From an uncultured Gemmatimonadaceae bacterium (GTDB lineage: Bacteria; Gemmatimonadota; Gemmatimonadetes; Gemmatimonadales; Gemmatimonadaceae), in contig CAWBOC010000005.1 of the NCBI GenBank assembly GCA_963790305.1, positions 768,001-832,000 on the forward strand: DNA of 64,000 bases, in the 5' to 3' direction. A program made the position numbers and the translations under genes. Numbering within the stretch: position 1 is the first letter of the stretch; each line of letters starts with the position of its first letter. Shown here in pieces: positions 1 to 62,781 of this stretch. The notes under the pieces are model-generated. The model did not search any database. It was not told the origin of the DNA and saw only the letters and a list, made by a program, of their open reading frames with translations.

Positions 1-1617
1 AACAAGGCGACCCGCGAGTTTCCGCCATCACTCGGGAAGCACTCTACCTCCCTCGCGGCGTGGGACTACCGCATTCAGTCCGGCCAGGCCGGGCGCGGAA
101 TGAGCAGCGCAGTCGACAACCTCGGACGGCAGCGTGCCCTGGCGATGTTCGCCGATTGGACCGACCGCATCGCGAAGGGCGAAGTACCGAGCACGGCGCC
201 GCGCCGGCCACAGGGCGTGGAGCGGAACGTCGTCATCACGCAGTGGGATTGGGCTGACCCGAAGTCCTATCTCCATGACGTCGTCTCGACCGATCGGCGG
301 AAGCCGACCGTGAACCCCAACGGCGCGCTCTATGGTGCGCTCGAGTTGAGCGCGGATTACCTCCCGGTGCTCGACCCGGTGCGTCACATCGCGTCCCGCG
401 TCCCGCTCACCGTTCGCGATCCGAGCACGCCGGCGACGAACCCATCGATGCCGCACCGTTCCCCGTATTGGGGCGATGAAGTGCTCTGGACCAGCAAGAA
501 CAACGTGCACAATCCGATGCTCGACGAGCGCGGTCGTGTCTGGATCACATCGGCGGTGCGCGCTCCCGACAACCCGCCGTTCTGCACGGCAGGATCGACC
601 CATCCGTCGGCGAAGCTCTTTCCGGTCGCGCGCGCAAGTCGCCATCTGGCGGTCTACGATCCGAAAACGAAAGAGCTCAAGCACATCAGCACCTGCTTCG
701 GCACGCACCATCTGATGTTCGCCGAGGATGCGAACAACACGCTGTGGACGAGCGGAGGCGGGCCGGTCGTCGGCTGGTTGAACACGAAGCTCTACGACGA
801 AACGGGAGATGAGGAGCGCTCGCAGGGCTGGACGGCGCTCGTCATCGACGCCAACGGCAACGGCAGGCGCGACGAGTACGTCGAGCCGGATGCGCCGCTC
901 GATCCGACCAAGGACAAGCGCATCGCCGCCGGCCTCTATGCGGTGGCGCCGGCGTCCGATGGGTCGGTGTGGGGATCGTCGTTAGGCTTCCCCGGCTCGA
1001 TCATTCGCTTGAATCCCGGCGCGAACCCGCCGGCAACGGCGCTCGCCGAGATCTATGAGCTGCCGTGGAACAACCCTAAGGCCACCGTTCAAGGCTTCTC
1101 CCCGCGCGGGATGGACATCGACCGCAACGGCGTCGTCTGGGCAGCGCTCGCGAGCGGGCACCTTGCCAGCTTCGATCGGCGCAAGTGCACGGGACCGTTG
1201 AACGGTCCGACCGCGACAGGGCAGCACTGCCCGGAAGGATGGACGTTCTACAGGGAGCCGTTGCCGCAGATGCAAGGCGTAACTGATCCCGGGAGCGCCG
1301 AGGCGAGCTATTACACCTGGGTCGATCAGTTCAACACGTTCGGGTTAGGCGCGAACATCCCGATTAACACCGGCAATCTGTCAGAAGGGCTGCTGGTACT
1401 GAAGGACGGGCAATGGATCATTCTGCGCGTTCCGTATCCACTCGGCTTTTTCACCAAGTGGCTGGATGGGCGCATCGACAATCCGGCCACGGGGTGGAAG
1501 GGTCGTGGGCTGTGGGCGACCATCAGCACGCGCGCACCGTTCCATATGGAGGGTGGCAAGGGAACGACGAGTAAGGTCATGAAGTTCCAGCTGCGACCTG
1601 ATCCGCTCGCCAGGTAG
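1..1617 (+). CDS. 5'-truncated beta-propeller (Vgb/NHL-like) protein of the carboxypeptidase-regulatory-domain-containing family
   Basis: Frame is open from base 1 (NKATREFP...), so the start lies upstream of the window. Repeated W/D-rich propeller strands (DERGRVW, DGSVW, DRNGVVW); ends FQLRPDPLAR. Confidence 0.6.
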   Translation, partial: NKATREFPPSLGKHSTSLAAWDYRIQSGQAGRGMSSAVDNLGRQRALAMFADWTDRIAKGEVPSTAPRRPQGVERNVVITQWDWADPKSYLHDVVSTDRRKPTVNPNGALYGALELSADYLPVLDPVRHIASRVPLTVRDPSTPATNPSMPHRSPYWGDEVLWTSKNNVHNPMLDERGRVWITSAVRAPDNPPFCTAGSTHPSAKLFPVARASRHLAVYDPKTKELKHISTCFGTHHLMFAEDANNTLWTSGGGPVVGWLNTKLYDETGDEERSQGWTALVIDANGNGRRDEYVEPDAPLDPTKDKRIAAGLYAVAPASDGSVWGSSLGFPGSIIRLNPGANPPATALAEIYELPWNNPKATVQGFSPRGMDIDRNGVVWAALASGHLASFDRRKCTGPLNGPTATGQHCPEGWTFYREPLPQMQGVTDPGSAEASYYTWVDQFNTFGLGANIPINTGNLSEGLLVLKDGQWIILRVPYPLGFFTKWLDGRIDNPATGWKGRGLWATISTRAPFHMEGGKGTTSKVMKFQLRPDPLAR

Positions 1618-1632
1618 GGCACCGCGCGACGC

Positions 1633-2277
1633 GTGCCCCATCCCCGGTCACAGCTCGCCGAGGAGTTCGGCGAGATCGACATCTATCTGTTCGACCAGCT
1701 CCTGCGCGCCCGGATCATACCGGGGATGACGGTGCTGGACGCGGGCTGCGGCCACGGTCGTAACCTCGTCTATCTGATGAGGAACGGGTACGAGGTGATG
1801 GGAGTCGACGAGGACCGCGCCGCGATCGACGCGGTGCGACGTCACGCCGCGGAGTTGGCTCCGCATCTACCGCCGCAGAACTTCCGCGTCGAGCCGATCG
1901 AGCACATGAGCTTGGCCGATGCGGTCGTCGACGTCGTCATTGGCAACGCCGTGCTTCACTTTGCGCGCGATGAACCGCACTTCGCTGCCATGCTCAACGA
2001 GATGTGGCGTGTCCTGCGGCCCGGTGGAATGCTGTTCTGCCGCCTTGCGTCGACGATTGGCATGGAAGGCCGCTTCCGTCACATATCCGGCCGCCGGTTT
2101 CAGCTTCTGGACGGCTCGGAGCGCTTTCTCGTCGACGAACCAATGCTCATGGACGCGACCGTGCGCCTTGGAGGTGACCTGCTCGATCCGCTGAAGACGA
2201 CCGTCGTGCAGAATCTGCGCTGCATGACGACGTGGGTCGCGCGAAAACGGCCCACCGCGAAGAGAGCGGGGGCGTGA
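1633..2277 (+). CDS. class I SAM-dependent methyltransferase
   Basis: Motif I VLDAGCGHG and later RVLRPGG. Confidence 0.85.
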   Translation: MPHPRSQLAEEFGEIDIYLFDQLLRARIIPGMTVLDAGCGHGRNLVYLMRNGYEVMGVDEDRAAIDAVRRHAAELAPHLPPQNFRVEPIEHMSLADAVVDVVIGNAVLHFARDEPHFAAMLNEMWRVLRPGGMLFCRLASTIGMEGRFRHISGRRFQLLDGSERFLVDEPMLMDATVRLGGDLLDPLKTTVVQNLRCMTTWVARKRPTAKRAGA

Positions 2278-2287
2278 CCGTATCTTC

Positions 2288-3346
2288 GTGACACTCCTGA
2301 TCTACGGCTCCACCGGCTACACCGGGCGCCTCATCGTTGCGGAAGCGCTCGCGCGCGGGCTACGCCCGATACTTGCCGGCCGCAACGCCGAGACCGTGCG
2401 AGTCCACGCCCAGTCGCTGGGCCTGGAGTGGCACGCGGCGAGGATCGATGATCCCACTGCGCTGGATGCCGCCCTCACGAACGCCGCCGTCGTGCTGCAT
2501 TGCGCGGGGCCCTTTGCGCACACCTGGCGCGCGATGTCCGATGCCTGCCTGCGCCGGCGTGCACATTATCTCGACATCACCGGAGAGATCGCGGTATTCG
2601 AGGGACTTGCCCGACGCGACGCCGAGGCGCGAGCGGCCGGAATCATGCTACTCCCCGGTGTGGGCTTCGATGTGGTGCCTTCAGACTGTCTGGCAGCGCA
2701 TCTCGCCCGCCGATTGCCTAACGCCGAGAGGCTCTCCCTCGCGTTTCGCGCGGTCGGTGGGGCTTCACGTGGAACCCTCACCACGATGGTCGAGAACCTC
2801 GGATCACCAGGCGCGATACGACGCGACGGGAAGATCGTCGCGGTACCACAGGCGTGGCGTACGCGCCGGATCGACTTCGGTGACGGCAAGCTACGAGACG
2901 CGACCACGATCCCGTGGGGCGACGTGTCCACGGCGTTTCACAGCACGGGCATTCCCGCCATCGAGGTATACGTCAGCATGCGGCCAGCGCTCCGCCGCGC
3001 CGCCATCGCCTCGCGCTGGCTCGGCCCCGTGCTCCGCAGTGGCATCGTCCGTCGCGTGCTCACCGCGTGGGTGCGCCGCGGCGCACCAGGCCCGAGCGAT
3101 GGAGACCGCCAGCGGGGTGCGAGTCTACTCTGGGGAGAAGCGACGGCGGCGACCGGTGAACGTGTGCAATCCAGGCTCCGCGGAGCGAGCGGTTACGTCC
3201 TGACCGCGCAAGCCGCCGTGCACCTCGCGGCGAAAGCGCTGGCAGGAGAAGCTCCTTCGGGATTTCAGACGCCTTCTCGAGCGTATGGGCCGGATGTGAT
3301 CCTGGAGATACCCGGCGTCACGCGCACCGACGTCACGCCCGCCTAA
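2288..3346 (+). CDS. saccharopine dehydrogenase-like NAD(P)-binding oxidoreductase
   Basis: Rossmann YGSTGYTG; HCAGPF, YLDITGE and GVGFDVVPSD family motifs. Confidence 0.85.
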   Translation: MTLLIYGSTGYTGRLIVAEALARGLRPILAGRNAETVRVHAQSLGLEWHAARIDDPTALDAALTNAAVVLHCAGPFAHTWRAMSDACLRRRAHYLDITGEIAVFEGLARRDAEARAAGIMLLPGVGFDVVPSDCLAAHLARRLPNAERLSLAFRAVGGASRGTLTTMVENLGSPGAIRRDGKIVAVPQAWRTRRIDFGDGKLRDATTIPWGDVSTAFHSTGIPAIEVYVSMRPALRRAAIASRWLGPVLRSGIVRRVLTAWVRRGAPGPSDGDRQRGASLLWGEATAATGERVQSRLRGASGYVLTAQAAVHLAAKALAGEAPSGFQTPSRAYGPDVILEIPGVTRTDVTPA

Positions 3347-3725
3347 CGTCGGCTTCGTCCCCGGAAGCTGCGGGCGGGTGCCCGAGGGCGGTTCCGAGCA
3401 GGGTCGCCGCGTATGCCGCGGCGACTAGGAGCGCGAGCAAACCCACGTTGCGATGCGGAGGCAGCGCCGCGTACGCGTGGAATACGATTGCGGCGACGGC
3501 TGCGCCGACGGCGAGCCGACGTGCGCTCCGGTGCTGGCGCCAGAGGGAGAGAGCTGCCAGCGCGATGAGCAGGCTCACCGTCGTGCCAACCAGGCCAATG
3601 ATCAGTGGCTGGACTTCTCCGCCGCGAATGCCGCGAACGAGAAGCTCATCTACCGCGCCGAAGCCGAGGAAAATCGCCACGAGAATGCCGAGGGCGACGA
3701 CCGCGCCGCGCAACATGACCGTCAT
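3333..3725 (-). CDS. hypothetical membrane protein (about 4 TM)
   Basis: ATG at 3725 preceded by GGAGG; four hydrophobic segments. Confidence 0.6.
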   Translation of the reverse strand: MTVMLRGAVVALGILVAIFLGFGAVDELLVRGIRGGEVQPLIIGLVGTTVSLLIALAALSLWRQHRSARRLAVGAAVAAIVFHAYAALPPHRNVGLLALLVAAAYAATLLGTALGHPPAASGDEADVRRA

Positions 3726-3876: not shown

Positions 3877-5200
3877 ATGGCGAAGGAAGAGCCAGCCGAG
3901 GTCCTGTCGATCGAGGGTCACGACGTCCGGATAACCAATCCGGACAAGCCGTACTTCACGCGAGCGGTCAAGCTCTCGAAGCTGGAGCTGGTGCAGTACT
4001 ATCTCTCGGTCGCCCCGGGTGCGGTCGCCGGCATCCGCGATCGCCCCCTCGTGCTCAAGCGCTATGTGAATGGCGCCGAACGCGAGCCGTTCTACCAGAA
4101 GCGAGCGCCTGAGAGCCGGCCGGCATGGCTGAAGACGGTCACACTCTCGTTTCCTTCCGGGCGCACCGCCGAGGAGATCGTCGTCGACAATGCCGCGGGT
4201 CTCGCGTGGGTCGTGAATCTGGGATGCATCGAGCTGCACCCGCACGCTGTACGGGCGACCGATCTCGATCACCCCAATGAGCTGCGCATCGACCTCGATC
4301 CGGGCCCGGGCGTCGAGTGGAACGACGTGCGGCGCGTCGCGATCGAGGCGAAGACGCTCCTGGAGGAAGTGGGACTGCGTGGGTGGCCCAAGACGAGCGG
4401 CTCGCGGGGGATGCACATCAACGTCCGCATCCATCAACGGTGGACGTTTACCGAAGTCCGCCGTGCCGCGCTGGCGTTCTCACGGGAGATCGAGCGACGT
4501 GCTCCGGCGCTGGCGACGTCGAAATGGTGGAAGGAGGAGCGCCGGGGCGTCTTTCTCGATTACAACCAGAACGCCAAGGATCGGACGACCTGCTCCGCGT
4601 ACTCCGTGCGTCCGCTTCCCGATACGCGCGTCTCGGCGCCGCTGCACTGGGAAGAGGTCCCGGAGTGTGAGCCCGCCGACTTCACGGTGCTCACGATGCC
4701 CGCGCGCCTAACCGCGATGGGGGACCCGCATAGCGCGATGGACGAGCATCCCGGATCGCTCGAGGGGTTGCTCGAGCTGGCGGAGCGCGACGAGGCCGCC
4801 GGCCTGGGTGACGCGCCCTGGCCGCCGCATTTCCGCAAGAATGGAAGGAGAAGGGGCGCGTGTTGCCCCCTCTCGCGCAAAGGGCGCGCGCAAGGCAGCG
4901 AAGAAAACGCCGGCCAAGCCGCGAGCGAAAATGCCGTTGATCGTCGTCGCGAATTCCACGGACAAGGAAGCCGCGCTGGCCGGGCTCGAGCGATGGAAGG
5001 CCAAGCATCCCGAGGCCGCATCTCACCTGGCGACCGATGATGTGTTGGTCGATTCCATGAGAGGACGGTCGTCGACGTGGACGCGCATTCGGGTGAACCT
5101 GCGCCACGTTCCGGAGGAGATCAGGCCGGCGCAGGAGACGCCTGACCCGGACGACGACCCGACGCGCGCGTGGAGGGAGGCGCGTCGTCCCCGCTCATGA
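3877..5200 (+). CDS. stand-alone LigD-type primase-polymerase (PolD/Prim-Pol family); one frameshift near 4840
   Basis: RIDLDP, KTSGSRGMH, DYNQN and YSVR motifs. Reading continues in another frame (PPHFRK-MEGEGARVAPSRA...VDSMRGRSSTWTRIRVNL). Confidence 0.85.
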
Positions 5201-6944: not shown

Positions 6945-8281
6945 ACGGTCGGTGTCCAGTTAGGCGCGTAGTCCCGCTGCCAGTGCTTCATCGCGGCCTG
7001 GTCACCGACGATACGTCCGGACTTCGGGTCCGTCTGCAACTTGCGGCCGGTGTACTGCGCAATGTTTCCCAGATGGCAGAGCAGAATACTCTTCGCGACC
7101 TCAGAGACGGGCGATCGTAGCACTTCTCCCGTTCGCACGGCGGCGGCGAAGTTCTCAATGTGCGCGCTCGTCTGCGCATCGTTGCCGGCGAAGTCGAGAC
7201 CGTCAGTGATCACCGCCTCGTGCACCTCGCGAACAACCGACCCCTTTACGTCATACTGGACGTAGCCGGCACGGTCGAGCACGATCGATCCCTCCGTTCC
7301 GAGCACCTGCGTCCCGCGCCCGCGGCCGAGGGTCTGAGAGCCGTTACAGCTCTGCCCCTGCCAGGTGATGGTCCTTCCATCGTCGAACTCGAACACCGCT
7401 TCCTGCGTATCGGTGAACTCCCAGTCATCATCGAAGTGAAAGCGACCGCCGGCTGACGCGACCCGCGTCGGATAGTCGACGCCCAGCGCCCACCGAGCGA
7501 CGTCGATCTCATGCGTGCCGTTGTTACAGATCTCGCCCGTACCCCAGCGCCGGAACCAGTGCCAGTTGTAATGCACGACGTTGTCGCGGTAGGGCGTCCG
7601 CGGCGCCGGGCCCTGCCACAGCTCATAGTCCAGGTGGGACGGCTTCGGCACCGCTTTGCCGCGCCCAATGGTGCCGCGCGTGTTGGCATACCACGCACGC
7701 GCGAGATACGGACGGCCAATGACCCCGTCACGAATCGCCTGAATGGCCTCGATCGATCGCACGCCGGAGCGCTGCTGGTTGCCGACCTGTACGACTCGCG
7801 AGTACTTCCGCTGAGCGGCAACCAGTAGCTCCAGCTCGCGCGCGTTGTGACTGGCGGGCTTCTCGACGTAGACGTGCTTTCCCGCCTTGAGCGCCAGAAT
7901 CGCCGCTGGGGCGTGCCAGTGATCGGGGACGGCGATCACGAGCGCGTCGACATTCGTGTCGTCGAGCGCGCGTCGGAAATCGCTGATGGCCTTGGGTGAC
8001 CTGGCAGCATCCTGCTGGAGCTCGCCCTGCGCCTTGGCGAGGACGACGGCGTCGACATCGCAGAGGTAGGCGACCTCGGTGTTCTGCGAGCGCATGAAGT
8101 TGCGCGCGAGCACCATCCCTCGCCCATTCAGCCCCATGACCGCGACGACCACCTTCTCGCTCGGCGATCCTCGGAAGTAGAGTGCCGGCGATGGAACGTG
8201 AGTCGCGGTCACCAGGCCGAGTCCCGCGAGCGATGTGTCGCGGAGGAACTCTCGGCGATCGAGGGTCGGCTTCCTGGTCAT
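6941..8281 (-). CDS. Tat-exported Gfo/Idh/MocA family oxidoreductase
   Basis: DRREFL twin-arginine signal; GLNGRG, PDHWH, HVYVEKP, HEID motifs. Confidence 0.9.
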   Translation of the reverse strand: MTRKPTLDRREFLRDTSLAGLGLVTATHVPSPALYFRGSPSEKVVVAVMGLNGRGMVLARNFMRSQNTEVAYLCDVDAVVLAKAQGELQQDAARSPKAISDFRRALDDTNVDALVIAVPDHWHAPAAILALKAGKHVYVEKPASHNARELELLVAAQRKYSRVVQVGNQQRSGVRSIEAIQAIRDGVIGRPYLARAWYANTRGTIGRGKAVPKPSHLDYELWQGPAPRTPYRDNVVHYNWHWFRRWGTGEICNNGTHEIDVARWALGVDYPTRVASAGGRFHFDDDWEFTDTQEAVFEFDDGRTITWQGQSCNGSQTLGRGRGTQVLGTEGSIVLDRAGYVQYDVKGSVVREVHEAVITDGLDFAGNDAQTSAHIENFAAAVRTGEVLRSPVSEVAKSILLCHLGNIAQYTGRKLQTDPKSGRIVGDQAAMKHWQRDYAPNWTPTV

Positions 8282-10826: not shown

Positions 10827-10834
10827 GACCTGCC

Positions 10835-11420
10835 TTACGAGTCGCGCTGTCGCCACAGCCTCGGAATCAGCCGGCCGGTGCGCGCTTCGTAGGCCTCGTA
10901 CGGTGCGCCGAACTTGGCGCGGAGCATCGCCTCTTCCTCCGGCAACCCCTTCGATGATTCCTGCGACGAGCAAGGGCCATAGCGCGAGCAGGATCCAATT
11001 CAGCGTGCCAAGCGCCGCGCCAAGCCAGAGGGCCAACGCCCCCGAGTACATCGGGTGGCGCATCCACTGAAACGGACCGTGGGTGATCAACACGTGGTCC
11101 GGCAGGATCGCCAGTCCGGGAATGAGCTGGCGACCGAGGGTTCGTACCGTCCACGCCACGACGCTCACCGCATAGAGGCTTAGCGCGACTCCGAGCACGC
11201 GAAGAATCGGTTGCTCGATCGCCATTCTGCCGATCCCGGACAGAATGATCAGCGGGGGAACCAGCCACGCAACGAGGGCCCCGACTTCCGGGAGCGGCCC
11301 AATCTGCCGCTCGAACGCCGGTCGCTCACGACGAATGCGCGCGACGGTGCTCAAGAAGCCCACAATGTCGAGCGCATAGAGGGCGAGGAACCACAGGCGG
11401 AGCGCGCGATCCACTGTCAT
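10835..11420 (-). CDS. isoprenylcysteine carboxyl methyltransferase / PEMT family membrane protein (frameshift near 10950)
   Basis: LITHGPFQWMRHPMY; the shifted frame gives EEAMLRAKFGAPYEAYEARTGRLIP then stop. Confidence 0.8.
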
Positions 11421-11471
11421 AGACCTCTGCTTTGGCCTAACGGCCGGTCACCTGTTCGCGTGACATCGCGT

Positions 11472-49908: not shown

Positions 49909-49913
49909 GGGAT

Positions 49914-49998: not shown

Positions 49999-50006
49999 CC
50001 TCAAAA

Positions 50007-51064: not shown

Positions 51065-51067
51065 CTG

Positions 51068-51641: not shown

Positions 51642-52846
51642 CCTGGAGACCGCTGGCGCTGGCCGCCAGCCTCATGGCCGTCCCCGTCGTGGCGCACACC
51701 GCGCGGGGCCAGGTGCGACCGGACAGCCTGTTCTCGCACGCGTTAGGCGTCCAGAAGCGGCTGCTCGTGTACCTGCCGCACTCGTACCACCGCGAGACGG
51801 CACGGCGATATCCGGTCGCGTACTATCTGCATGGTGCCTGGGGCACTGAGGACAACTGGGTCAGCCTCGGCCGCATCGATCGCACGATGGACTCGCTGGT
51901 CGCGGCGGGGCTTCCCGAGATGATCCTCGTGCTCCCCGATGGCGATGATGGCTGGTACACCACGTGGAATGCCCTCAATAACACCGCCACCTGTCGTGCG
52001 GACACGGCACGACGCGAGCCTGCCAACAGCTACTGCGTGACGTGGCCCAAGTACGATGAGTACCTCGCACGGGAGCTCATCGCGCACGTCGATTCGACGT
52101 ACCGCACTCGGGCGGAACGTGCCCGTCGCGGGATCGCGGGGCTGAGCATGGGCGGGTACGGCGCCATTTCGCTCGCGCTGCGCTATCCCGATCTGTTCGC
52201 GGCGGCCGCCAGCCACTCGGGGGTGCTGTCCCCTCGTTATGCGGGACCAACCCCCTATACGTCCCCGACGCGGTACGCCGCGACGGTCGACACCATTCAA
52301 CGCCGCTACTCGCCGGGCCTCTGGGCCCTCATGCGGCCGGTATTCGGTGGCGACACGATTGGCTGGCGCGCGCGCGATCCCGCGGTGTATGCCCGCCAGC
52401 TCGTCGCGAGACGCGCTCAGGTGCCCGCACTGTTCGTCGACATCGGTCGCGACGATCCGTTCCTCCAGCAGAACCGCGCCTTTCGCGCCGACATCACCGC
52501 GCTCGGTATCCCGGTGAAATACGCCGAATGGCCCGGCAAGCATGACTGGGTGTATTGGCGGTTGCATGCCGTCGAGAGTCTTACCTGGATGGCGGGGGTC
52601 ATCGCGAAACAGGAATTAGGAGTCAGGGGTCAGGGGTCAGGGGGTTTCAGGGGGATGGGTCGCAGGAGAGAACGGCAATGCATCGCCTACAACGCTTCAC
52701 CCAGCCCCCTGATCCCTGACCCCTGCCTCCTAACTCCTACTTGGCCCCGACTCGACGCGGCTACATACTATCGACCGTGGCCCGCTACTTCCCCCGCGAC
52801 AATGTCGCGTGGCACCTCGAGGAGCCGAGGATACTCCGCAAGCTGA
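51638..52846 (+). CDS. secreted esterase (Fes/FrmB-like alpha/beta hydrolase); homology ends near 52610 and the ORF reads through a repeat
   Basis: VYLP, YYLHG, GLSMGG, G.DD, GKHDW; GTGA overlap with the OsmC stop. Confidence 0.82.
   Translation: MTWRPLALAASLMAVPVVAHTARGQVRPDSLFSHALGVQKRLLVYLPHSYHRETARRYPVAYYLHGAWGTEDNWVSLGRIDRTMDSLVAAGLPEMILVLPDGDDGWYTTWNALNNTATCRADTARREPANSYCVTWPKYDEYLARELIAHVDSTYRTRAERARRGIAGLSMGGYGAISLALRYPDLFAAAASHSGVLSPRYAGPTPYTSPTRYAATVDTIQRRYSPGLWALMRPVFGGDTIGWRARDPAVYARQLVARRAQVPALFVDIGRDDPFLQQNRAFRADITALGIPVKYAEWPGKHDWVYWRLHAVESLTWMAGVIAKQELGVRGQGSGGFRGMGRRRERQCIAYNASPSPLIPDPCLLTPTWPRLDAATYYRPWPATSPATMSRGTSRSRGYSAS
52609..52741. repeat. palindromic repeat, family B
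   Basis: AGGAATTAGGAGTCAGGGGTCAGGGGTCAGGGGG ... CCCCCTGATCCCTGACCCCTGCCTCCTAACTCCT. Confidence 0.85.
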
Positions 52847-53358
52847 CGTTGAGCTTGCCGGCGATGGCAGTGATCGCCGGACTCCTCGTCAGGCTCATTC
52901 GGGTCGGCGTCAGCGAGATCACCGTCAGCTGGTGGGGGGTCTTCGGGGCGATCGCGCTCGGGTTGGTGGTGCTGCTCACGACCGCGACGGCGCACCTCGG
53001 AAACTATCCGGTGAAGCAGTGGCTGTGGCGCGCACCGCTCTTCGGGCTCGCCGAGGGCGCCGCCGAGTCCGGCGTGAGCGCGCTGCTCACCCTCATCGGC
53101 GTCGAGCGACTCGGCAGCACGCAGGCCCACCTCAGCGACTGGCCGTCGATGGCGACGGACACGATTATCGGGACGCCGGGGCTGGCCTTTCTCGACGGGC
53201 GCATCGTGATGGTGTCGCTGTTCGCGCTCGTGTTGGCCGGCGTCGTCCAGGTGGTGCGCTATCTCCTCCTGCGCAGCGAGAACCGCGACCACACCGCGGT
53301 CGCGATTCATGAGGAGCACGAGCGACAGGAGCAGGCGGCTTCGCATCAAGCAGATTGA
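52777..53358 (+). CDS. hypothetical membrane protein
   Basis: About 4 TM; GTG start preceded by TACTAT. Confidence 0.65.
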   Translation: MARYFPRDNVAWHLEEPRILRKLTLSLPAMAVIAGLLVRLIRVGVSEITVSWWGVFGAIALGLVVLLTTATAHLGNYPVKQWLWRAPLFGLAEGAAESGVSALLTLIGVERLGSTQAHLSDWPSMATDTIIGTPGLAFLDGRIVMVSLFALVLAGVVQVVRYLLLRSENRDHTAVAIHEEHERQEQAASHQAD

Positions 53359-53391
53359 TCGTTTCGGCCCTTCACATGTGTAGGCGATGAT

Positions 53392-54771
53392 ATGCGAATG
53401 AGAGCGGCGCGCATCGGTGTCGCGCTCGCGGGCGCGCTCATGTTCCCCGCGCACGCCAGCGCTCAGGGCTCCCCTCCGCTGCGGCCGTTCGGCACGCTGC
53501 GCGAGCAAGCGGCGGTGCGACAGCAGTGGCTGCAACAGCGCATGGAGACCGTGCTGCCCGGGCTCATGCGACAGTACGGCGTCGACATGTGGATCATCCC
53601 GATGCGGGAGTACAACGAGGATCCCGTCTTCTCTTCGATCGTCGCGCCGACGACGTTCGCCGCTCGTCGCCGAACGATCTACGTACTCTTCGACCGCGGG
53701 CCGGAGGCGGGCGTTGAGCGTCTGGCACTGGGCGGCTCGTCACAAGGCGGTGTCTACACTGCCGTGCGATCACAGCGGGCGGTGTCGGGAAGCTGGCTCG
53801 CCGCGAACCGGGCCGAGATCGGCGACGACGAGCAATGGCTCGTGCTCAGAGATCTGATCGAGCAGCGAAAGCCGGCGCGGATTGCCATCAACGTCTCGCG
53901 CGGGTGGGCCTTCGCCGACGGATTGTCAGCCGGTGAGTACGAAACCATGCGTGAGGCGCTGGGGGAGCCGTGGACCAGCCGGTTCGTGCGCGTGGAAGGG
54001 ATGGCGGTCGACTTCATCGCCTCCCGCCTGCCGGATGAAGCGCGGGCCTACGAGGGTCTGCAGCGGCTCGTGTGGGCGCTCATCGACACCGCATTCTCGA
54101 ATCGCGTGATTACGCCGGGCGAGACCCGCACCAGCGACGTCGTGTGGTGGTTCCGTCAGCGCGTGAACGACCTGGGCCTCACGGCCTGGTTCCATCCGTC
54201 AGTGACCGTGCAGCGTCGCGGCGCGACGGCCCAGCAACTCGGCGAGGACCCGATCATTCAACGTGGCGACGTGCTTCACTGTGACGTCGGCCTCGTGGCG
54301 CTCGGCCTCGCCACCGACACGCAGCACATGGGCTACGTCCTGCTCACCGGCGAGACAGCGCCGCCGGCGGGATTGCAGCAGGTCTTGTTGGCGTCGAACC
54401 GGCTGCAGGATATCGTTATGCAGGAGCTTCGCGTCGGCCGGACGGGCAACGAGATCCTCAAGACTTCGCTCGAGCAGATGCGCCGCGCAGGTATCGAAGG
54501 CAGCGTATACACCCACCCGATTGGCGTTCACGGTCATGGGGCGGGCCCGCTCATCGGTCGGTGGGACAGTCAGGACGGTGTGCCCGGTCGCGGCGACCAC
54601 AAGGTGATCCCTGGCATGTGGTTCTCGATCGAGCTCCAGGCGACGTCGGCCGTGGCCGAGTGGGGCGGACAGCGGGTGTGGTCGGCGCAGGAGGAAGATG
54701 CAATCATCTCGCAGGATGGAAAAATCCGGTGGGCACTGCGGAGACAAACTGGATTTCACCTCGTCAGATAA
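53392..54771 (+). CDS. secreted M24 (Xaa-Pro aminopeptidase-like) metallopeptidase
   Basis: GDVLHCDVG, TDTQ, HPIG.HGH, SIE, EED metal-ligand motifs. Confidence 0.85.
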   Translation: MRMRAARIGVALAGALMFPAHASAQGSPPLRPFGTLREQAAVRQQWLQQRMETVLPGLMRQYGVDMWIIPMREYNEDPVFSSIVAPTTFAARRRTIYVLFDRGPEAGVERLALGGSSQGGVYTAVRSQRAVSGSWLAANRAEIGDDEQWLVLRDLIEQRKPARIAINVSRGWAFADGLSAGEYETMREALGEPWTSRFVRVEGMAVDFIASRLPDEARAYEGLQRLVWALIDTAFSNRVITPGETRTSDVVWWFRQRVNDLGLTAWFHPSVTVQRRGATAQQLGEDPIIQRGDVLHCDVGLVALGLATDTQHMGYVLLTGETAPPAGLQQVLLASNRLQDIVMQELRVGRTGNEILKTSLEQMRRAGIEGSVYTHPIGVHGHGAGPLIGRWDSQDGVPGRGDHKVIPGMWFSIELQATSAVAEWGGQRVWSAQEEDAIISQDGKIRWALRRQTGFHLVR

Positions 54772-54833
54772 CGAGGCTAGCTTCCGAAGACGTCTTCGGA
54801 AGTTGATCGTTTCGCGATGGCGGGAGGTTCGGG

Positions 54834-55211
54834 ATGCGGAAAAAGGACAAGAAGCTCATCGTCGTCGGCGATCGCGTTCTGATCGCGATCGAGGAGGGTG
54901 AAGAGCGGACGAAGGTCGGCCTCTATCTCCCTCCGTCGGCGGTCGACAACCAGGCGGTGCAGGGCGGCCGGATCGTCGCTACCGGGCCGGGACTTCCGAT
55001 GCCCGATCCTGGGGAAACGTCCGACGAGCCCTGGCGGACGGCCGCGCGGGAGACGCGCTTCGTGCCAATGCAGGCGAGGGTTGGCGACTACGCGCTCTTC
55101 TTCCGGCGGGCCGCGGTCGAGATCACGTTCGAGAGCGACCGGTATCTGGTGGTACCGCAGACGGCGATTCTCGCGCTCGTCCGAGAAGGCGCCGTCCGCG
55201 AGGAGGACTGA
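54834..55211 (+). CDS. GroES/Cpn10 family co-chaperonin (no adjacent groEL)
   Basis: GDRVLI, TKVGLYLP, G.IVATGPG, VGD..LF, ILA. Confidence 0.82.
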   Translation: MRKKDKKLIVVGDRVLIAIEEGEERTKVGLYLPPSAVDNQAVQGGRIVATGPGLPMPDPGETSDEPWRTAARETRFVPMQARVGDYALFFRRAAVEITFESDRYLVVPQTAILALVREGAVREED

Positions 55212-55230
55212 CGACACTCATGGAGATGTG

Positions 55231-55656
55231 ATGCGAATCCAGATGTATGATGAGCGCTTCGTCACACCAATGCGCGAAGAGCTCACGCAGCTCGGCGTTC
55301 GCGAGATGCGCACGCCTCAGGAGGTCGATGATGTCCTGCGCGAGGCGAGTGGCACCACGCTGGTCGTCGTCAACTCCATCTGCGGCTGCGCTGCGCGCAA
55401 CGCGCGTCCCGCGGTGGCGCGTGCCCTGGAGAGCGCGAAGCGGCCCGACCGCCTGACGACGGTCTTCGCTGGTCAGGATGCCGAAGCGACGGCGCGTGCA
55501 CGGGAGTACTTCACGCCCTATCCCCCGTCGTCGCCACAGATCGCGCTACTGAAGGACGGCGAGGTTGCGTTCATGCTCGAGCGCAGACAGATCGAGGGCC
55601 GCGATGCCGAGCAGATCGCGAAGGATCTGGTGGAGGCATTCGAGCGCCACTGTTAG
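55231..55656 (+). CDS. BrxA/BrxB (YphP/YqiW) bacilliredoxin
   Basis: PMREEL, NSICGCAA..ARP, TVFAGQD.EAT..AR, PPSSP, IEG. Confidence 0.9.
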   Translation: MRIQMYDERFVTPMREELTQLGVREMRTPQEVDDVLREASGTTLVVVNSICGCAARNARPAVARALESAKRPDRLTTVFAGQDAEATARAREYFTPYPPSSPQIALLKDGEVAFMLERRQIEGRDAEQIAKDLVEAFERHC

Positions 55657-55662
55657 AGGGGT

Positions 55663-55717
55663 GAATGCGGAGTGCGGAATGCGGATCACACAATTCCGCC
55701 TTCCGTGCTCCGCATTC
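55663..55717. repeat. palindromic repeat, family C (degenerate)
   Basis: GAATGCGGAGTGCGGAATGCGGAT ... TTCCGCCTTCCGTGCTCCGCATTC. Confidence 0.8.
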
Positions 55718-55723
55718 GCCGTT

Positions 55724-55739
55724 TGGCATAGCCTCTGCA
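55724..55739 (+). promoter_or_regulatory. candidate sigma54 -24/-12 promoter
   Basis: TGGCAT-AGCCT-CTGCA (GG-N10-GC), about 50 nt upstream of the ElaB-like gene. Confidence 0.55.
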
Positions 55740-55791
55740 CTCACGTCACTCGCTTCTGAGACGCAGCACACTAGCCGAGGGGGGAGTGGAT

Positions 55792-56331
55792 ATGGAACGC
55801 AACTACAATGACACGTTCGGTGGCAGCAACGACACGCCAAGCGTCGGGGGCTCCAGCGGACAGAGTGGTGCGGGCACTGGCGACACCGGCTTCGGGTCGG
55901 GCGCGCAGCGCGCCGACACATCCTTCTCCGGTGCGCCCGGATCGATGGGCGCGGGCACATCGACGGAAAGCGTCGGCGGGAAGGTCAGCAAGGCGAAGGA
56001 AAAGATCGGCGAGCGCGCCAGTGAGCTGAAGTCGTCGCTCGCGGATCGGCTCGAGCAGGGCGCCGAAAAGCTTCGGCAGCGCGCGCACAGCGGTGGCCAG
56101 TATGCGGGCGCGACCGGCGAGAGCACCGTCGGCGTCTCCGAAAACGACAAGATGACACAGGTCGCCGACAAGGTCGCCGGCGGAATGCAGAGCACCGCGA
56201 ACTGGGTGCGCAACGCCGATCTCGAGACGGTCAAGGGTGACATCGAGCGCCAGGTGAAGGAACACCCCGCTCGCACGCTCCTCGTCGCAGTCGGGCTCGG
56301 GTACGTGCTGGGCAAGGCGTTCCGCCGCTAG
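55792..56331 (+). CDS. ElaB/YqjD/DUF883-like tail-anchored protein with Gly/Ser-rich N-terminus
   Basis: C-terminal VKEHP..TLLVAVGLGYVLG.AFRR. Confidence 0.7.
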   Translation: MERNYNDTFGGSNDTPSVGGSSGQSGAGTGDTGFGSGAQRADTSFSGAPGSMGAGTSTESVGGKVSKAKEKIGERASELKSSLADRLEQGAEKLRQRAHSGGQYAGATGESTVGVSENDKMTQVADKVAGGMQSTANWVRNADLETVKGDIERQVKEHPARTLLVAVGLGYVLGKAFRR

Positions 56332-56339
56332 GAGGACCT

Positions 56340-56762
56340 ATGGCGACCGGACGCGACAACGGACGCGGGATCGGCGTGCTGTTACGCGATCTCGCGGACG
56401 GCGGCGCCGCGCTGCTCCGTCAGGAGCTGCGGCTCGCGCGCGTCGAGCTGGGCGGCATCGCCAGCGCGGTGGGCGTCGGCACGGCGCTCACCGCCAGCGG
56501 CGCCGTGCTCGCCATGCTCGGAACGTTCACGGTCTTGATCGGCATCATCCTGCTCGCCGGTGACCAGTGGCTTCGGGACCGGTATTGGCTTGCGGCACTC
56601 ATTGGCGCTGTGATCGCCGGCGGGATCGCCGCGTGGATGGCACGCCGCGGGGCCGCGCATCTCTCGCCTCGCCGTCTCATGCCTGACGAAACGGTGCAGA
56701 CGCTCAAGGAGGACAAGGAATGGCTGAAACGACAGCTGAAGTCCGGCGCGACATCGAGGTGA
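56340..56762 (+). CDS. YqjE/DUF1469 (phage holin family) membrane protein
   Basis: LLRQELRLARVE, 2 TM, PDETVQTLKED.EW. Confidence 0.8.
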   Translation: MATGRDNGRGIGVLLRDLADGGAALLRQELRLARVELGGIASAVGVGTALTASGAVLAMLGTFTVLIGIILLAGDQWLRDRYWLAALIGAVIAGGIAAWMARRGAAHLSPRRLMPDETVQTLKEDKEWLKRQLKSGATSR

Positions 56763-57187
56763 CTCGGGAGCGCATGTCGGACACGCTCGCGCAGCTCGAG
56801 CACAAGCTGAACGTCATGGAGATCGTTCGCGATCACCCGTGGCCAGCACTCGCCGTCGCCGCGGGGGCGGGGTTCGCGCTCGCCAACTCGCGCGCCAATG
56901 TGAAGGCGGCAGCGGCGGCCGTGAAGGCCACCAATGGTGCCGGCAGCAAGGTCGGCGCACTGCTCGACGATCTTGCCGCCACCCTCATCGGTGGAGTGAG
57001 TACCGCGCTTTCGCAGCGGGTCGACGGTCTCGTCGGTGAGCTCAAGAGCGCCTTGGGGGCTCCCACGAGCACGCACGCGGCGTCGCGATCGACGTCGGAG
57101 CGTCAGCTGGTCGGTTACGGCGAGACGCCGGGCGGATCGCGCTCGAGCGTCGCCCCTTCGGGCGCTCTCGGCGCACGCGCGGACTGA
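56720..57187 (+). CDS. DUF3618 domain protein
   Basis: EVRRDIEVTRERMSDTL..L..KL followed by HPW + TM. Confidence 0.78.
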   Translation: MAETTAEVRRDIEVTRERMSDTLAQLEHKLNVMEIVRDHPWPALAVAAGAGFALANSRANVKAAAAAVKATNGAGSKVGALLDDLAATLIGGVSTALSQRVDGLVGELKSALGAPTSTHAASRSTSERQLVGYGETPGGSRSSVAPSGALGARAD

Positions 57188-57190
57188 ACG

Positions 57191-57330
57191 GCAGGAGCTA
57201 GGAATCAGGGGTCAGGGATGAGGGGGTGTTAGGGTGAAGGTGTCAGGGGATGCCCAAGCAGTACGCGTTTCTCCCCTCCAACCCGCTCCCTAACACCCCC
57301 TGATCCCTGACTCCTGACTCCTGACTCCCA
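57191..57330. repeat. palindromic repeat, family B
   Basis: GGAGCTAGGAATCAGGGGTCAGGGATGAGGGGGTGTTAGGG ... CCCTAACACCCCCTGATCCCTGACTCCTGACTCCTGACTCC. Confidence 0.85.
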
Positions 57331-57333
57331 ACC

Positions 57334-57738
57334 ATGGGCGACGGACTCGGAACCCTCCTTCCCATCCTCGGCGGCATACAGTGGATCGCCGGGCTCGTGC
57401 TCTCGGTCGCCGCCCTGAGGCGGGCCCGAGGCTTTGACCGGCGCGGTGGCTTCCTCGCCCGCGTCAGCGCGCGAGTCGCCATCGCACTTTTCATTACTGC
57501 CGCCCTCGACCTCATCCTGCGGGCATCGGGGGCAAGCGTCTACCTCGCGAACTGGCTCCCACCCGATTTCAACCGGGACACCTGGCACCTCCGCGCGCTA
57601 CTGATCCTCTGCGGTGCCGCTTGGCTGATGCTGCTGATAGCGGCATCGGTGAACGCGAGCCTGGGCGTCGGTGAACGCCGGCGGTCAGCGGCGGAGGAAC
57701 TTCGGCGGCGGATGGGGGGTCGAAGGACACCCTACTGA
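57334..57738 (+). CDS. hypothetical membrane protein (3 TM)
   Basis: Three hydrophobic segments; fills the gap after the repeat. Confidence 0.55.
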   Translation: MGDGLGTLLPILGGIQWIAGLVLSVAALRRARGFDRRGGFLARVSARVAIALFITAALDLILRASGASVYLANWLPPDFNRDTWHLRALLILCGAAWLMLLIAASVNASLGVGERRRSAAEELRRRMGGRRTPY

Positions 57739-58211
57739 CGGGGTGAATCTGCCCCTGGTGTAGCGCGCCCTCGCCGGACCCTGATGGCTCGCATCATCAC
57801 CTGTGGTGCAAGCGCGACACACCAATACTCAGTCAACGGGGGGCGGGAGCAGGGCCGGTGCATACAGAGGCTCGGCGCACTCGTCGCCGTGCGGTGGCGT
57901 GCGTGGGTCGGACCAGGCTCCGCCCGATGTCGTCAAGTCGTTGTCCATCTTGCCGTAACGGAGCTGGTGGCAGACGACATCACGCGGCTTGAACAGCCGT
58001 TCGAGCACCGTGTATTCGAGCACCGGAGCAGGGCTGACTTTGCGAGCAAAGCCGGGCGTCTGGTGGGTGCTCTCCTTGCAACGGCCTTTGCCGCCCGAGA
58101 TGGCTACCCGGTTGTGTGACGTTCGTCGCTGCGACTGGAGCTCGGCTTGTTTACGCCTTGCCGTCTCACCCGCATTGCTAGTCCCACTTCTCTTCCTTCC
58201 AGGAGTCTCGC

Positions 58212-58427
58212 ATGAACCGCTTGATGCAAGGCGTTCGTCGCTTCCTTCGCGACGAAGACGGCGCCGCGATCGCCGAGTACGGGCTGCTCCTCGCCATCGT
58301 TGCAGTTGGCCTGATCGCAATTCTGACTGCGTTCCGAGATGACATCTCGCTGTGGTGGAACAACATGCGCGATGACATCGTCGCGACGCCGAGCGCCAAT
58401 CCGCACGCGCCAGCCGCCGCGCCCTGA
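58212..58427 (+). CDS. flp: Flp type IVb pilin
   Basis: RFLRDEDG|AAIAEYGLL Flp motif; AGGAG RBS. Confidence 0.92.
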   Translation: MNRLMQGVRRFLRDEDGAAIAEYGLLLAIVAVGLIAILTAFRDDISLWWNNMRDDIVATPSANPHAPAAAP

Positions 58428-58445
58428 CCATTCGGGGTTAGTGGC

Positions 58446-58985
58446 GTGAATGCGTTCAGCGGGCCCTCGCCCGTCGTAGCAGGCGCAGCGTTCACGCTAC
58501 TGCTCGTGGGTGCCTGCGTGACCGACCTTCGGTCACGGCGCATCCCGAACGGCTTGGTGCTCGCGCTGGTGTTGGGTGGTATCGGGTACTCGATGGCGAC
58601 GATGGCACCGCTTGCCGGGCTAGGGTACGCACTCGGCGGTGGTGCAGTTGGGCTTGCTCTGTGGCTCCCGTTCTGGTTGATGCGCGTTCTCGGGGCTGGG
58701 GATGTGAAGCTCGCTGCCGCATCGGGTACCTGGCTTGGCATCGCGGGGATCCTGGAGGCGTCGCTTCTCGGCGCCTTCGCCGGTGGGTTGCTTGCCGTGT
58801 GGGCGCTTTCGCGGCAGGGCGGCTTATCGGCAGCAGTAACCCGTTTCGGCGGGTGGATGCTCGCCTCGCGAGCGACCGGTGCCATCGCGCCGGAAGTGAC
58901 ACCGAAGGAACGTCGTATTCCGTACGGCCTGGCCATCGCCGCGGGCTCCGCGGCGGCGGCCTGGGTTCCTGGACTGATCTGGTAG
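58446..58985 (+). CDS. cpaA: A24 prepilin peptidase (CpaA/TadV)
   Basis: DLRSRRIPN, GAGDVKL, IPYGLAI. Confidence 0.9.
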   Translation: MNAFSGPSPVVAGAAFTLLLVGACVTDLRSRRIPNGLVLALVLGGIGYSMATMAPLAGLGYALGGGAVGLALWLPFWLMRVLGAGDVKLAAASGTWLGIAGILEASLLGAFAGGLLAVWALSRQGGLSAAVTRFGGWMLASRATGAIAPEVTPKERRIPYGLAIAAGSAAAAWVPGLIW

Positions 58986-58993
58986 AGGACGTC

Positions 58994-59413
58994 ATGCGCT
59001 CACGAACGTTGATTCGGGAAGACGATGGAGCCGCAGTGGTCGAGTTCGCGCTCGTTATGCCGATCCTCGCGCTCATCATCTTCGGCATCATCGACTTCGG
59101 GCGCGCGTTCTATACGGTCAACAACATCATTTCAGCTGTTCGTGAGGGCTCGCGGTACGGGGCCATTCTGGCCGCACCAATGAGCACGTTGGGGCAAAGC
59201 GAGATTCGCACACGGGTTCGAGGGGTCTCGAAGCCGTTCGGCGGTGATACGCTCCGCAATGAGCACATCGAGATCGAGTTCGACGGAGAGTTGATCACCG
59301 TGCGTGTCGACAGCTTTCCCTTCCAACCCCTCACGCCAATCGCAGGCGCACTGGGAGTCGGAACCTGGCCGATCACACGACAGGCCACCTTCCGCTGGGA
59401 GCGCGGCACCTAA
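58994..59413 (+). CDS. tadE: TadE-like pseudopilin
   Basis: G|AAVVEFALVMP...FGIIDFG...AVREGSR. Confidence 0.88.
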   Translation: MRSRTLIREDDGAAVVEFALVMPILALIIFGIIDFGRAFYTVNNIISAVREGSRYGAILAAPMSTLGQSEIRTRVRGVSKPFGGDTLRNEHIEIEFDGELITVRVDSFPFQPLTPIAGALGVGTWPITRQATFRWERGT

Positions 59414-59464
59414 CGCGAAACATCGGGCGCCGGCTGGAGCCGTGCGCCCTCGGAGCAACGACTC

Positions 59465-61580: not shown

Positions 61581-61587
61581 CGTGTCG

Positions 61588-62778
61588 ATGCTACGCAAGG
61601 CGCTCATCGTCGCCGGCGCGGCCGGCCCGACGGATGCGGCGAAAGCCGTATTGGCGCGCTTCGGCTTCGCTGAGCCGAGCGCGTCGATTGACGTCAGCAC
61701 GGCGTTGTCGGAGCTGCAGAATCAGACCTACGATCTGCTGTTGCTTCCGCTCCAGGAGCTCGACTCCCTCCAGCTGGCGGCGGTCGAGCGCGCGCTTCGC
61801 GCAGGACGCGTGTCGTTTACGATTGGCACCGCACCGCGCGCCGAGCCGGACCTGATCCTTCGCGCGATGCGCTCGGGGATCCAGGAGTTCCTCGTCTACC
61901 CGCCCGATCCGAAGGATCTGGCGACGGCGATCGACCGGCTCATGCGCCGCGCGAACGCGAATGGCCAGCGCGGAGCCGTCTACGCCCTGTACAGCGGCAA
62001 GGGTGGAGTCGGCACGACCTCGATCGCCGCGAATCTCGCCCACGCCCTGGCAAAGGGACAGAAGGACTCGCGCGTCGCGATCGCCGATCTCGTCGTCACC
62101 GACGGCGACATCCGGGTCTTCCTGAACCTCAAGCCGGCGTACGACCTCGGCGATCTGGTGAAGAAGCTCGATCGCGTGGATGCCGAGCTCCTCTACTCGC
62201 TCATGACGCCGTACCGCGAGGGCATCTGGGCGCTGCCGGGTCCGGACAATCCCGAGCTCGACGATCTGCTCGATGGCGCGACGATCAGTACCATCGTCGA
62301 GCAGCTGCGCAGCCACTTCGCGTTCACGGTGCTCGACTGCGAGCATCACATGAGCGAGCGCACATTGGCGGCGATGGACATCGCCGACCGCATTCTGCTC
62401 GTCACGCAGCTGAACGTCCCAGCGCTGCGGAGCACGCAGCGGAGCCTCGCGATCTGCCGCCGGCTCGGGTACCCCAACGACAAGATGTGCGTCGTCGTGA
62501 ACCGCTATCAGTCCGGCGAAGTGTTGTCGCTCACCGACGCGACCGACGTTCTGAAGTGCGACGTGTTCTGGAAGCTTCCGAACGACTATCGCACCTCGGC
62601 GGGCGCGCTCATGAAGGGAATTCCCGTGGCGGAATTCGACTCCAGCTCCAAGCTGGCGTGGAGCTATGGACAGCTCGCGGCCAAGCTCGCGGGCGTGGGA
62701 GAGGTTGCTCGAAATGGTGCTCATCGTGGCGGCGTTCGGTCGCTGCGCGCCCTCCTCGGCATGAAAAAGAGAGCCTAA
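61588..62778 (+). CDS. cpaE: CpaE/TadZ (pseudo-receiver + ParA/MinD-like)
   Basis: AMRSG..EFL..P, KGGVGTTSIAANLA, VVNR. Confidence 0.88.
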   Translation: MLRKALIVAGAAGPTDAAKAVLARFGFAEPSASIDVSTALSELQNQTYDLLLLPLQELDSLQLAAVERALRAGRVSFTIGTAPRAEPDLILRAMRSGIQEFLVYPPDPKDLATAIDRLMRRANANGQRGAVYALYSGKGGVGTTSIAANLAHALAKGQKDSRVAIADLVVTDGDIRVFLNLKPAYDLGDLVKKLDRVDAELLYSLMTPYREGIWALPGPDNPELDDLLDGATISTIVEQLRSHFAFTVLDCEHHMSERTLAAMDIADRILLVTQLNVPALRSTQRSLAICRRLGYPNDKMCVVVNRYQSGEVLSLTDATDVLKCDVFWKLPNDYRTSAGALMKGIPVAEFDSSSKLAWSYGQLAAKLAGVGEVARNGAHRGGVRSLRALLGMKKRA

Positions 62779-62781
62779 CGA

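Follow-up and report, generated by a model that had tools for sequence, protein, structure and literature searches.

A graded, asymmetric word iterated through Gemmatimonadaceae genomes as a possible self tag with a protein reader

Introduction

Does a seven-letter sequence that recurs inside genes, in different frames and on both strands of a bacterial contig constitute a signal, and if so, what could be reading it? The question is raised by 64,000 nucleotides of DNA (positions 768,001 to 832,000 of contig CAWBOC010000005.1; this whole stretch is called the window below) from an uncultured Gemmatimonadaceae soil bacterium, in which the word GTTAGGC, or its complement GCCTAAC, appears repeatedly. 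The window is part of contig C5 of the source genome, denoted G000, an assembly of 4.31 Mb in 13 contigs with 66% GC and 94% completeness. Its own GC content is 65.9%, and the closest public relatives of one window protein carry Gemmatimonadaceae titles.

To our knowledge, few genome-wide self words have been recognized, namely the DNA uptake sequence (DUS), the uptake signal sequence (USS), the highly iterated palindrome HIP1 and Chi, each confined to one lineage. Literature searches for the word itself, for uptake or iterated words in Gemmatimonadota and for mimicry by phages found no paper, with most subscription journals outside their coverage. The word analyzed here is real, selected and undescribed in the searched literature, and its features are suggestive of a self tag with a protein reader.

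Results

Enrichment of the word in the window and in the genome

The window contains 22 copies of GTTAGGC/GCCTAAC, compared with a mean of 2.09 and a maximum of 5 in 100 dinucleotide shuffles, and 16 of these extend to the octamer CGTTAGGC (shuffle mean 1.02). According to our own gene calls, supplemented with one open reading frame (ORF) with an NCBIfam match, 17 of the 22 sites are genic, two are TAA stops and three are intergenic; the genic sites are read as TTA (nine), CTA (three), CCT-AAC (three) and GTT-AGG (two). The first-pass annotation of the window had reported 22 exact heptamers, 9 on the plus and 13 on the minus strand, 16 of them extending to the octamer, along with about eight GTTAGG-core variants, and had described most sites as lying inside genes in different frames, where they force TTA or CTA codons or supply stops. 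A recount bears this out for every coordinate and for both strands, with exactly eight further core variants. The excess that it claimed also stands, whereas its expectation of about seven heptamers at 68% GC was too generous a null for the actual GC content and shuffle mean, and it overlooked 17 compensated variants such as TCGTCAGGC.

Across G000, GTTAGGC is the top-ranked heptamer, with 1,105 copies against 87 expected under an order-2 Markov model, and CGTTAGGC occurs 855 times against 40 expected. In coding DNA (4,076 called genes, 86% of the assembly), 889 heptamers were counted, compared with 69-96 in five synonymous shuffles, an approximately tenfold excess; 145 of the 1,105 copies are intergenic. 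More than half of all TTA codons (589 of 1,075) fall within GTTAGG, and 70 of 556 TAA and 70 of 1,039 TAG stops lie in the context of the word, versus 4.5% and 0.8% for TGA. The enrichment thus survives synonymous shuffles as well as a codon-resampled null, the kind of test that the first-pass annotation had named as able to refute its claim. A codon or amino-acid artefact is ruled out by these codon-aware nulls, and the motif-coded peptides are not in excess relative to G010, a word-poor relative of G000 used as an independent control.

A graded word

Under the codon-resampled null, [ACG]CGTTAGGC is enriched 21-24-fold and TCGTTAGGC 11.5-fold in G000. Variants with one mismatch depend on the preceding base: TCGTCAGGC is enriched 7.9-fold but [ACG]CGTCAGGC only 0.8-1.4-fold; with T at position -1, TCGTGAGGC reaches 4.4-fold (otherwise 0.5-1.1), TCGTTATGC 6.1-fold (otherwise 1.3-2.4) and TCGTTAGGG 9.3-fold (otherwise 0.4-1.3). 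Neither of the outer two G positions in the core tolerates substitution, and GTTAGAC is not enriched under codon-aware nulls. Per 400 kb, the control G010 has 1 CGTTAGGC, 1 TCGTCAGGC and 21 [ACG]CGTCAGGC, compared with 79, 51.5 and 25 in G000. The signal is therefore a graded 9-10-mer, TCGTTAGGC(R), in which one-mismatch variants are enriched mainly when another position compensates, and approximately 2,290 sites in G000 meet this definition. Such additive compensation with a plateau points to a threshold of protein binding. The use made of available peptides varies among hosts: the word-rich genome G016 writes the word at 70% of its X-Pro-Asn and 35% of its [SPTA]-Leu-Gly opportunities, versus 22% and 10% in G000.

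Conservation, spacing and strand

In 298 kb of codon alignments between G000 and its congener G004 (85.6% identical), CGTTAGGC is identical in G004 at 34 of 50 sites, compared with 20% for control 8-mers encoding the same residues in the same frame, so that conservation between relatives, the other test named in the first-pass annotation, is likewise found. TTA codons are retained in 30 of 39 cases within the word versus 2 of 33 elsewhere. Amino-acid identity to the word-poor G010 under 11 sites is 0.78, versus a background of 0.70, and the word is written mostly through silent changes. Compensatory turnover beside lost sites was also considered; with one new site near 52 lost ones, the number is too small to demonstrate it.

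Sites exclude each other over a short range. Among pairs less than 400 bp apart in G000, the observed and expected numbers are 26 and 63 for direct, 12 and 31 for convergent and 11 and 31 for divergent pairs; the exclusion fits 1-exp(-d/336 bp), reaches approximately 340 bp regardless of orientation, spans gene borders and connects the variant classes, and five control words have no such deficit. No clear phasing of the sites with the helical period was seen in G000. Relative to the local polarity of GGGNAGGG, which we take to be the motif of the FtsK-orienting polar sequences (KOPS), the strand counts in G000 are 602 and 579, and a hand count over 19 stretches of the chromosome of another word-rich genome, G297, gave 137 and 128. 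GGGNAGGG is polar in both genomes and the word is not, and there is no replichore skew. The earlier argument that missing strand polarity speaks against Chi or KOPS holds in view of these counts and of the orientation-blind exclusion.

Positions less than 340 bp from a site make up only 32% of G000, and gaps of 9-30 kb persist. The density of the word is normal in the ribosomal block and lowered in an island on contig C13 (5 versus 21.7) and in the integron array (8 versus 15.9). The island (C13:205000-245792) is a 40-kb segment of lower GC that carries sugar and trehalose-type genes, is nearly free of the word, and represents either foreign DNA or a binning error.

Distribution among Gemmatimonadota

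A survey of 301 genomes of the phylum, with word-rich genomes defined by at least 100 copies and at least 34 per Mb, identified 18 rich genomes, 13 from family f1, among them G000, and 5 from a single genus of family f2, and none among the 102 genomes outside the order. These tallies include four unpublished word-poor genomes (G015, G078, G117 and G197), which are not the sole basis of any claim. A separate count added seven more congeners of G000, G012, G016 (6,360 copies) and G030 (family f3). Density varies approximately 35-fold among rich genomes, the densest one sampled having a core about every 490 bp, and all four replicons of G297 bear the word. Rich and poor genomes coexist within genera: genus g38 includes genomes with 3,896 and 4,141 copies and one with 66, and of the congeners G234, G290 and G286, the first two are rich and the last is poor. 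A methyltransferase tree, employed as a proxy of kinship, interleaves rich and poor genomes and therefore implies repeated gains or losses of the word. No alternative "dialect" word was seen in 480 kb of G010 or in approximately 55 kb each of the poor genomes G020 and G029.

The word in other lineages and in phages

A metagenome scan, in which the search pattern itself selects T at -1, produced more than 123 loci, of which 80 were fetched and 36 were long enough to examine. These comprised cassette arrays along with contigs of 55-61% GC that carry the dispersed word, mostly on both strands. The proteins of the word-dense contigs have median identities of 25-50% to those of G000, and in twelve hand-picked contigs the density is one core per 760 bp, with T at -1 in 80% of the cores. 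The same 9-mer is thus dense in contigs of another lineage; Atlas matches linked one contig protein to Verrucomicrobiota and another to Acidobacteriota or Verrucomicrobiota, which serve as leads only.

Five pattern scans of viral sequences, which likewise select for the word, yielded 261 examined loci, mostly cassette arrays or chance matches, together with some dense dispersed records. The provirus G317, encoding terminase, portal and holin, has 28 GTTAGG in 25 kb (13 and 15 on the two strands). Three records are known from word counts alone: G321 with 48 YGTTAGGY in 41 kb (27/21), G322 with 36 copies in 28.5 kb (23/13) and G324 (9/9). G331 has 25 copies in 57 kb and, like G332, is mixed in strand. 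The complete myophage G318, which encodes a lambda-like terminase, an anti-restriction gene and deazaguanine-pathway genes, has 36 GTTAGG in 57.8 kb, 35 of them on one strand (p 1e-9) independently of gene direction: 22 genic copies are sense in plus-strand genes and 7 antisense in minus-strand genes, compared with 0.8 and 2.4 expected. The strongest form, T[CT]GTTAGGC, predominates, with 29 genic copies versus about 3 expected. No integrase was seen among the 44 of 69 called genes of G318 that were scanned. A second multi-copy word, AAGCTTAT, occurs 27 times on both strands of this phage (loci L391-L393).

Among 54 close terminase relatives of G318, four are dense (strand counts 5/0, 1/10, 5/5 and 9/6), one of them doubtful; 16 distant relatives have one copy in total, and three complete relatives have 2, 12 and 25 copies. 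The polarity is confined to G318 and its nearest relative, and the word is patchy among phages as it is among hosts. Further candidates for polar phages were rejected: G327 and G328 are just modestly enriched, L710 has an A-rich context, L781 is a tandem repeat, and L760 and L771 are paired arrays. The latter two, from the viral collection, contain many CCTAACAA/TTGTTAGG pairs 10 bp apart, placed every 400-1,000 bp, and resemble arrays with very short sites.

Identity with an integron end

The consensus of the attC core site is GTTRRRY/RYYYAAC, and the GTT triplet is invariant in integron cores. The attC sites of G019, G021, G067, G145 and others terminate in (T/C)CGTTAGGC, and in the word-poor kin most copies of the word are attC ends. 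The word is the right end of this order's attC, an identity that is real, letter for letter, and includes the two bases before the core. G000 itself has an integron (C9:694912-726000) in which intI immediately follows tsaD-lgt; the cassette array downstream, which is on the same strand, comprises approximately 30 attC of 130 bp with small genes and toxin-antitoxin-like pairs. The cores of this array are GCATAAC/GCAGAAC, found in 27 of 29 inverse-core-like matches, and GCGTTATGC/GCGTTCTGC. The proposition that attC of rich genomes avoid the word holds for the G000 array and for the few G297 sites seen and is not general, the values for G166 (30 versus 24) and G212 (14 versus 5) overlapping those of poor genomes. 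An inverse-core partner with hairpin 50-140 bp upstream of the genomic sites of G000 was not found, with two pattern matches in the genome. A repeat family or attC remnants are ruled out as the source of these sites, which lack fixed flanks and paired cores.

Candidate readers

No reader of the word was found: IntI, the ComEA family, ComEC, DprA, a FimT-like pilin and a methyltransferase are each present in both rich and poor genomes. IntI was rejected in this role, its occurrence among the kin not tracking the word. The genes for ComEC, DprA and the FimT-like pilin are present in G000. The sole DNA methyltransferase found in G000 by three family searches is a Type IIG-like adenine enzyme adjoined by an SNF2/ResIII-like helicase (L141:7022-12367; G000 C7:233022-238370). 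Its motifs are intact, 42 of the 43 Gemmatimonadales searched retain it, and its inheritance follows kinship; such order-wide retention is unusual for Type IIG-like enzymes. No alignment column of this enzyme separates 19 rich from 19 poor genomes (best difference 0.53).

The PF12705 (AddAB/RecB-type) nuclease had no match in G000 or four congeners, and searches of genus g1 and of many Gemmatimonadales yielded no AddAB/RecB-type nuclease. In a family search counted by hand, with several cases unclear, an AddAB-like pair was clear in 2 of 22 rich versus 15 of 27 poor genomes (p 0.0008, not corrected for kinship); a less sensitive single-protein query gave 1 of 18 versus 45 of 283 (p 0.33). The inverse trend between AddAB and the word is suggestive only, and AddAB was rejected as a reader, not being found in most rich genomes. 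A replacement gene at the AddAB loci could not be read, the loci of G286 and G010 not being syntenic with G000. G000 also encodes a UvrD-like helicase into which a DEDD exonuclease domain is inserted (L431:4807-7749; C2:120807-123752).

Sites and neighboring genes in the window

All sites given here are sequence matches. TTA codons are supplied by TCGTTAGGC at 981..987 (plus strand; Ser-Leu-Gly) and 18625..18633 (minus), by GTTAGGC at 1344..1350 (plus) and, in an M20 peptidase gene, at 28184..28190 (minus), by the TTGTTAGGC variant at 24362..24368 (minus) and, in a cyanophycinase gene, at 37294..37300 (minus), and by CGTTAGGC at 27642..27649 (minus; a major facilitator superfamily transporter gene), 31213..31220 (plus) and 51741..51748 (plus; the esterase-like ORF 51563-52846). 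CTA codons are found at 4706..4712 (GTTAGGC, minus) in a LigD-polymerase-like gene, at 28760..28767 (CGTTAGGC, plus) in the same M20 peptidase gene, and at 39975..39982 (TCGTTAGGC, plus) in the 3' part of a cyanophycin synthetase, the 5' part of which has CGTTAGGC read as GTT AGG at 40981..40988 (minus). The other GTT AGG reading is CGTTAGGC at 12902..12909 (plus), and CCT AAC is read from CGTTAGGC at 2716..2723 and 50575..50582 (both minus) and from GTTAGGC in an oxidoreductase gene at 6959..6965 (plus). The TAA stop of ORF 2288-3346 is provided by CGTTAGGC at 3341..3348 (minus), and another by TCGTTAGGC at 62773..62781 (minus). By our gene calls, the CGTTAGGC copies at 11435..11442 (minus), 12208..12215 (plus) and 15326..15333 (minus) are intergenic.

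The eight GTTAGG-core variants, within 16858..59414, start at 16858 (plus), 24951 (minus), 34481 (minus), 46096 (plus), 52729 (minus), 57228 (plus), 57289 (minus) and 59409 (minus); the one at 52729 sits in a palindromic repeat and may be no site. The 17 compensated variants with T at -1 (TCGT[ACG]AGGC, TCGTTATGC, TCGATAGGC), some of which occur by chance, lie on both strands within 10832..59060, starting on the plus strand at 15950, 33175, 41374, 42179, 45917, 51466, 52234, 52886, 54413 and 59052 and on the minus strand at 10832, 13359, 14103, 31173, 34795, 55451 and 56681.

The cyanophycin synthetase (38898-41569), adjoining the cyanophycinase, is present as two ORFs; because other core genes of G000 are also split (a Xer recombinase on C3 and ClpB on C6), assembly errors are likely. 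The window further contains LigD-polymerase-like and LigC-like genes (3826-6449) and Flp/Tad pilus assembly genes (59465-63309, with a CpaB match). A palindromic intergenic repeat of approximately 130 bp with units GGAGTCAG/GGGGTCAG is found at 43238-43367 and 52610-52740; the two copies fold at -119 and -82 kcal/mol, with 50 and 26 matches in G000 and many in congeners. Other abundant intergenic repeat words are TCCGCATTC and GCCTCTAGC.

Discussion

Enrichment and conservation support the interpretation of the first-pass annotation that the word is a genome-wide signal; among the four options that it offered, an uptake sequence and a protein-binding site fit best, and a link to methylation found no support. 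The observations taken together imply a local, saturable and orientation-blind benefit that does not need to cover the chromosome, and the 35-fold range of densities, the coverage of 32% and the 30-kb gap argue for a graded drive rather than an essential coat. The best reading, which we hold tentatively, is an uptake-sequence-like tag spread by transformation drive. We infer that a protein reads the word, that this protein acts in uptake and that the exclusion length reflects fragment size. In such a mechanism, TCGTTAGGC(R) would be the binding word of a putative sequence-specific double-stranded-DNA protein, most likely the receptor of the natural transformation machinery, and would confer an advantage reaching approximately 340 bp. 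Fragments of a few hundred bases with one above-threshold site would be taken up and recombined more often, site-creating alleles would spread by molecular drive, mostly via silent changes, and the exclusion zone would arise because nothing is gained from a second site less than a fragment length away. Uptake drive would also predict a step between TCGTCAGGC and GCGTCAGGC. Passages of one report describe uptake sequences under drive as fairly evenly spaced and under-represented in newly acquired segments (PMC7811141), and both features are seen in G000. The genomic signature is like that of an uptake sequence; the word is a candidate member of that class.

Several observations weigh against this reading. 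The HhH/ComEA family is present in 49 of 49 genomes and ComEC and DprA in 5 of 5, poor kin included; the ComEA-family matches of G000 are weak or cut by a contig end; and the FimT-like pilin has approximately 30% identity across genera, with no ortholog common to the rich lineages. No fixed or extended flanks were seen around the sites of G000, and inverted intergenic pairs account for only about 4 of 23 pairs less than 120 bp apart. Known uptake sequences are family-specific, yet this word recurs in the distantly related metagenome contigs, and the one-strand arrangement in G318 is not predicted by an orientation-blind drive.

The main rival, possible if rather unlikely, is an intracellular license, whereby a host protein bound to the word would shield nearby DNA from a nuclease or silencing system of the host, and phages and plasmids of word-rich hosts would acquire the word to pass as self. 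The dense dispersed copies in G317, G318, G321, G322 and G331, the strongest form in the complete phage G318 next to anti-restriction and deazaguanine genes, and the patchiness in its family are consistent with this possibility, and the phage data favor a tag needed by incoming DNA; the scarcity of AddAB-like pairs in rich genomes looks as if they had been replaced by another system. However, two thirds of the G000 chromosome lie beyond the 340-bp reach, with long gaps that speak against a strict license, the AddAB contrast disappears with the single-protein query, and strand polarity is limited to two phages. In addition, the phages come from scans biased toward the word, drive could have introduced it into proviruses, and G318 has a second multi-copy word of its own.

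Somewhat less likely still is a DNA passport shared across phyla, in which one horizontally shared reader would recognize TCGTTAGGC in unrelated soil bacteria. In this reading the word is the commonest right end of soil integron cassettes, so that the reader might let cells fish for cassettes or license DNA, its presence would fill chromosomes with the word, and phages of such hosts would copy it, in one lineage with strict polarity.

A HIP1-like role, in which a DNA methyltransferase targets the word and methyl-directed repair creates or maintains it, is improbable. The enzyme in question would be the order-wide Type IIG-like enzyme with its adjoining SNF2-like helicase, the sole methyltransferase found in G000, intact and widely kept, and an orientation-blind reach of a few hundred bases suits a repair signal. 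Against this, the enzyme is shared by rich and poor genomes, follows kinship and has no separating alignment column, the word is not palindromic, and Type IIG-like enzymes are sharply specific, a specificity unlike the graded compensation.

Even less probable is an origin in the integron, with IntI or a derived protein reading or writing the word on account of its identity with the right end of attC, which would imply a preference for TCGTTAGGC and TCGTCAGGC over TCGTTAGAC in duplex DNA. The identity of the attC ends in several genomes and the presence of IntI and a cassette array in G000 speak for it; against it, IntI occurs in 25 of 31 kin whatever the word load and was not found in the rich G005 and G012, genomic sites have no inverse-core partner, the third base of GTT is the most tolerant position, contrary to an integrase core, GTTAGAC is common in attC yet not enriched genome-wide, and G000's own attC mostly have other cores. 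Finally, a polar signal for an end-loading helicase-nuclease (Chi) or for FtsK (KOPS), which the polarity and lambda-like terminase of G318 bring to mind, is most improbable and for G000 largely refuted, given the absence of replichore skew in two hosts, the orientation-blind exclusion, the lack of PF12705 matches and the G318 relatives that are not all polar.

The word has been gained or lost repeatedly within one order, rewrites codon use and recurs in another lineage and in phages. If it is a true uptake sequence, it would constitute a third natural system, in which a comparison of rich and poor congeners (G234 and G290 versus G286) could lead to the receptor and the measurable exclusion length would offer a test of the drive model; as an intracellular license, it would reveal an undescribed self/non-self system already answered by phages. 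Either reading bears on the introduction of DNA into Gemmatimonadota.

Comparison with known systems

Like DUS and USS, the word is non-palindromic, present in hundreds to thousands of copies on both strands, genic via silent changes, conserved, spaced more evenly than chance and sparse in acquired DNA. DUS and USS frequently form inverted pairs in terminators; the word has few such pairs, is shorter and lacks extended flanks. Its occurrence is also uneven within genera and families, although an unrelated lineage and phages have the identical word, and it equals an attC end. The DUS of Neisseriaceae has ComP as its receptor, and ComN/PpdA is the predicted receptor for the USS of Pasteurellaceae (10.1101/2025.06.16.659825), whereas a receptor for the present word was not found. 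With the attC core, the word shares the letters of the right end, including the two bases before the core, but it is single, unpaired, genic and in both orientations, with a breakable core triplet and rejection of GTTAGAC. Chi, read by RecBCD/AddAB, and KOPS, read by FtsK, are asymmetric octamer-sized words, as is this one, and a phage whose terminase is lambda-like has it on one strand; the differences are the unskewed host replichores, the orientation-blind exclusion and AddAB not being found in G000 and most rich genomes. Parts of two reports on HIP1 of cyanobacteria (GCGATCGC) describe a palindrome that holds methyltransferase sites and has a periodicity of 10-90 kb (PMC5861425; PMC13756078), and, as far as those parts go, the two words are alike in being highly iterated and conserved at silent sites, with one-mismatch variants under selection and a function long open; the present word differs in its asymmetry, in having no matching methyltransferase signal and in its exclusion at 0.3 kb.

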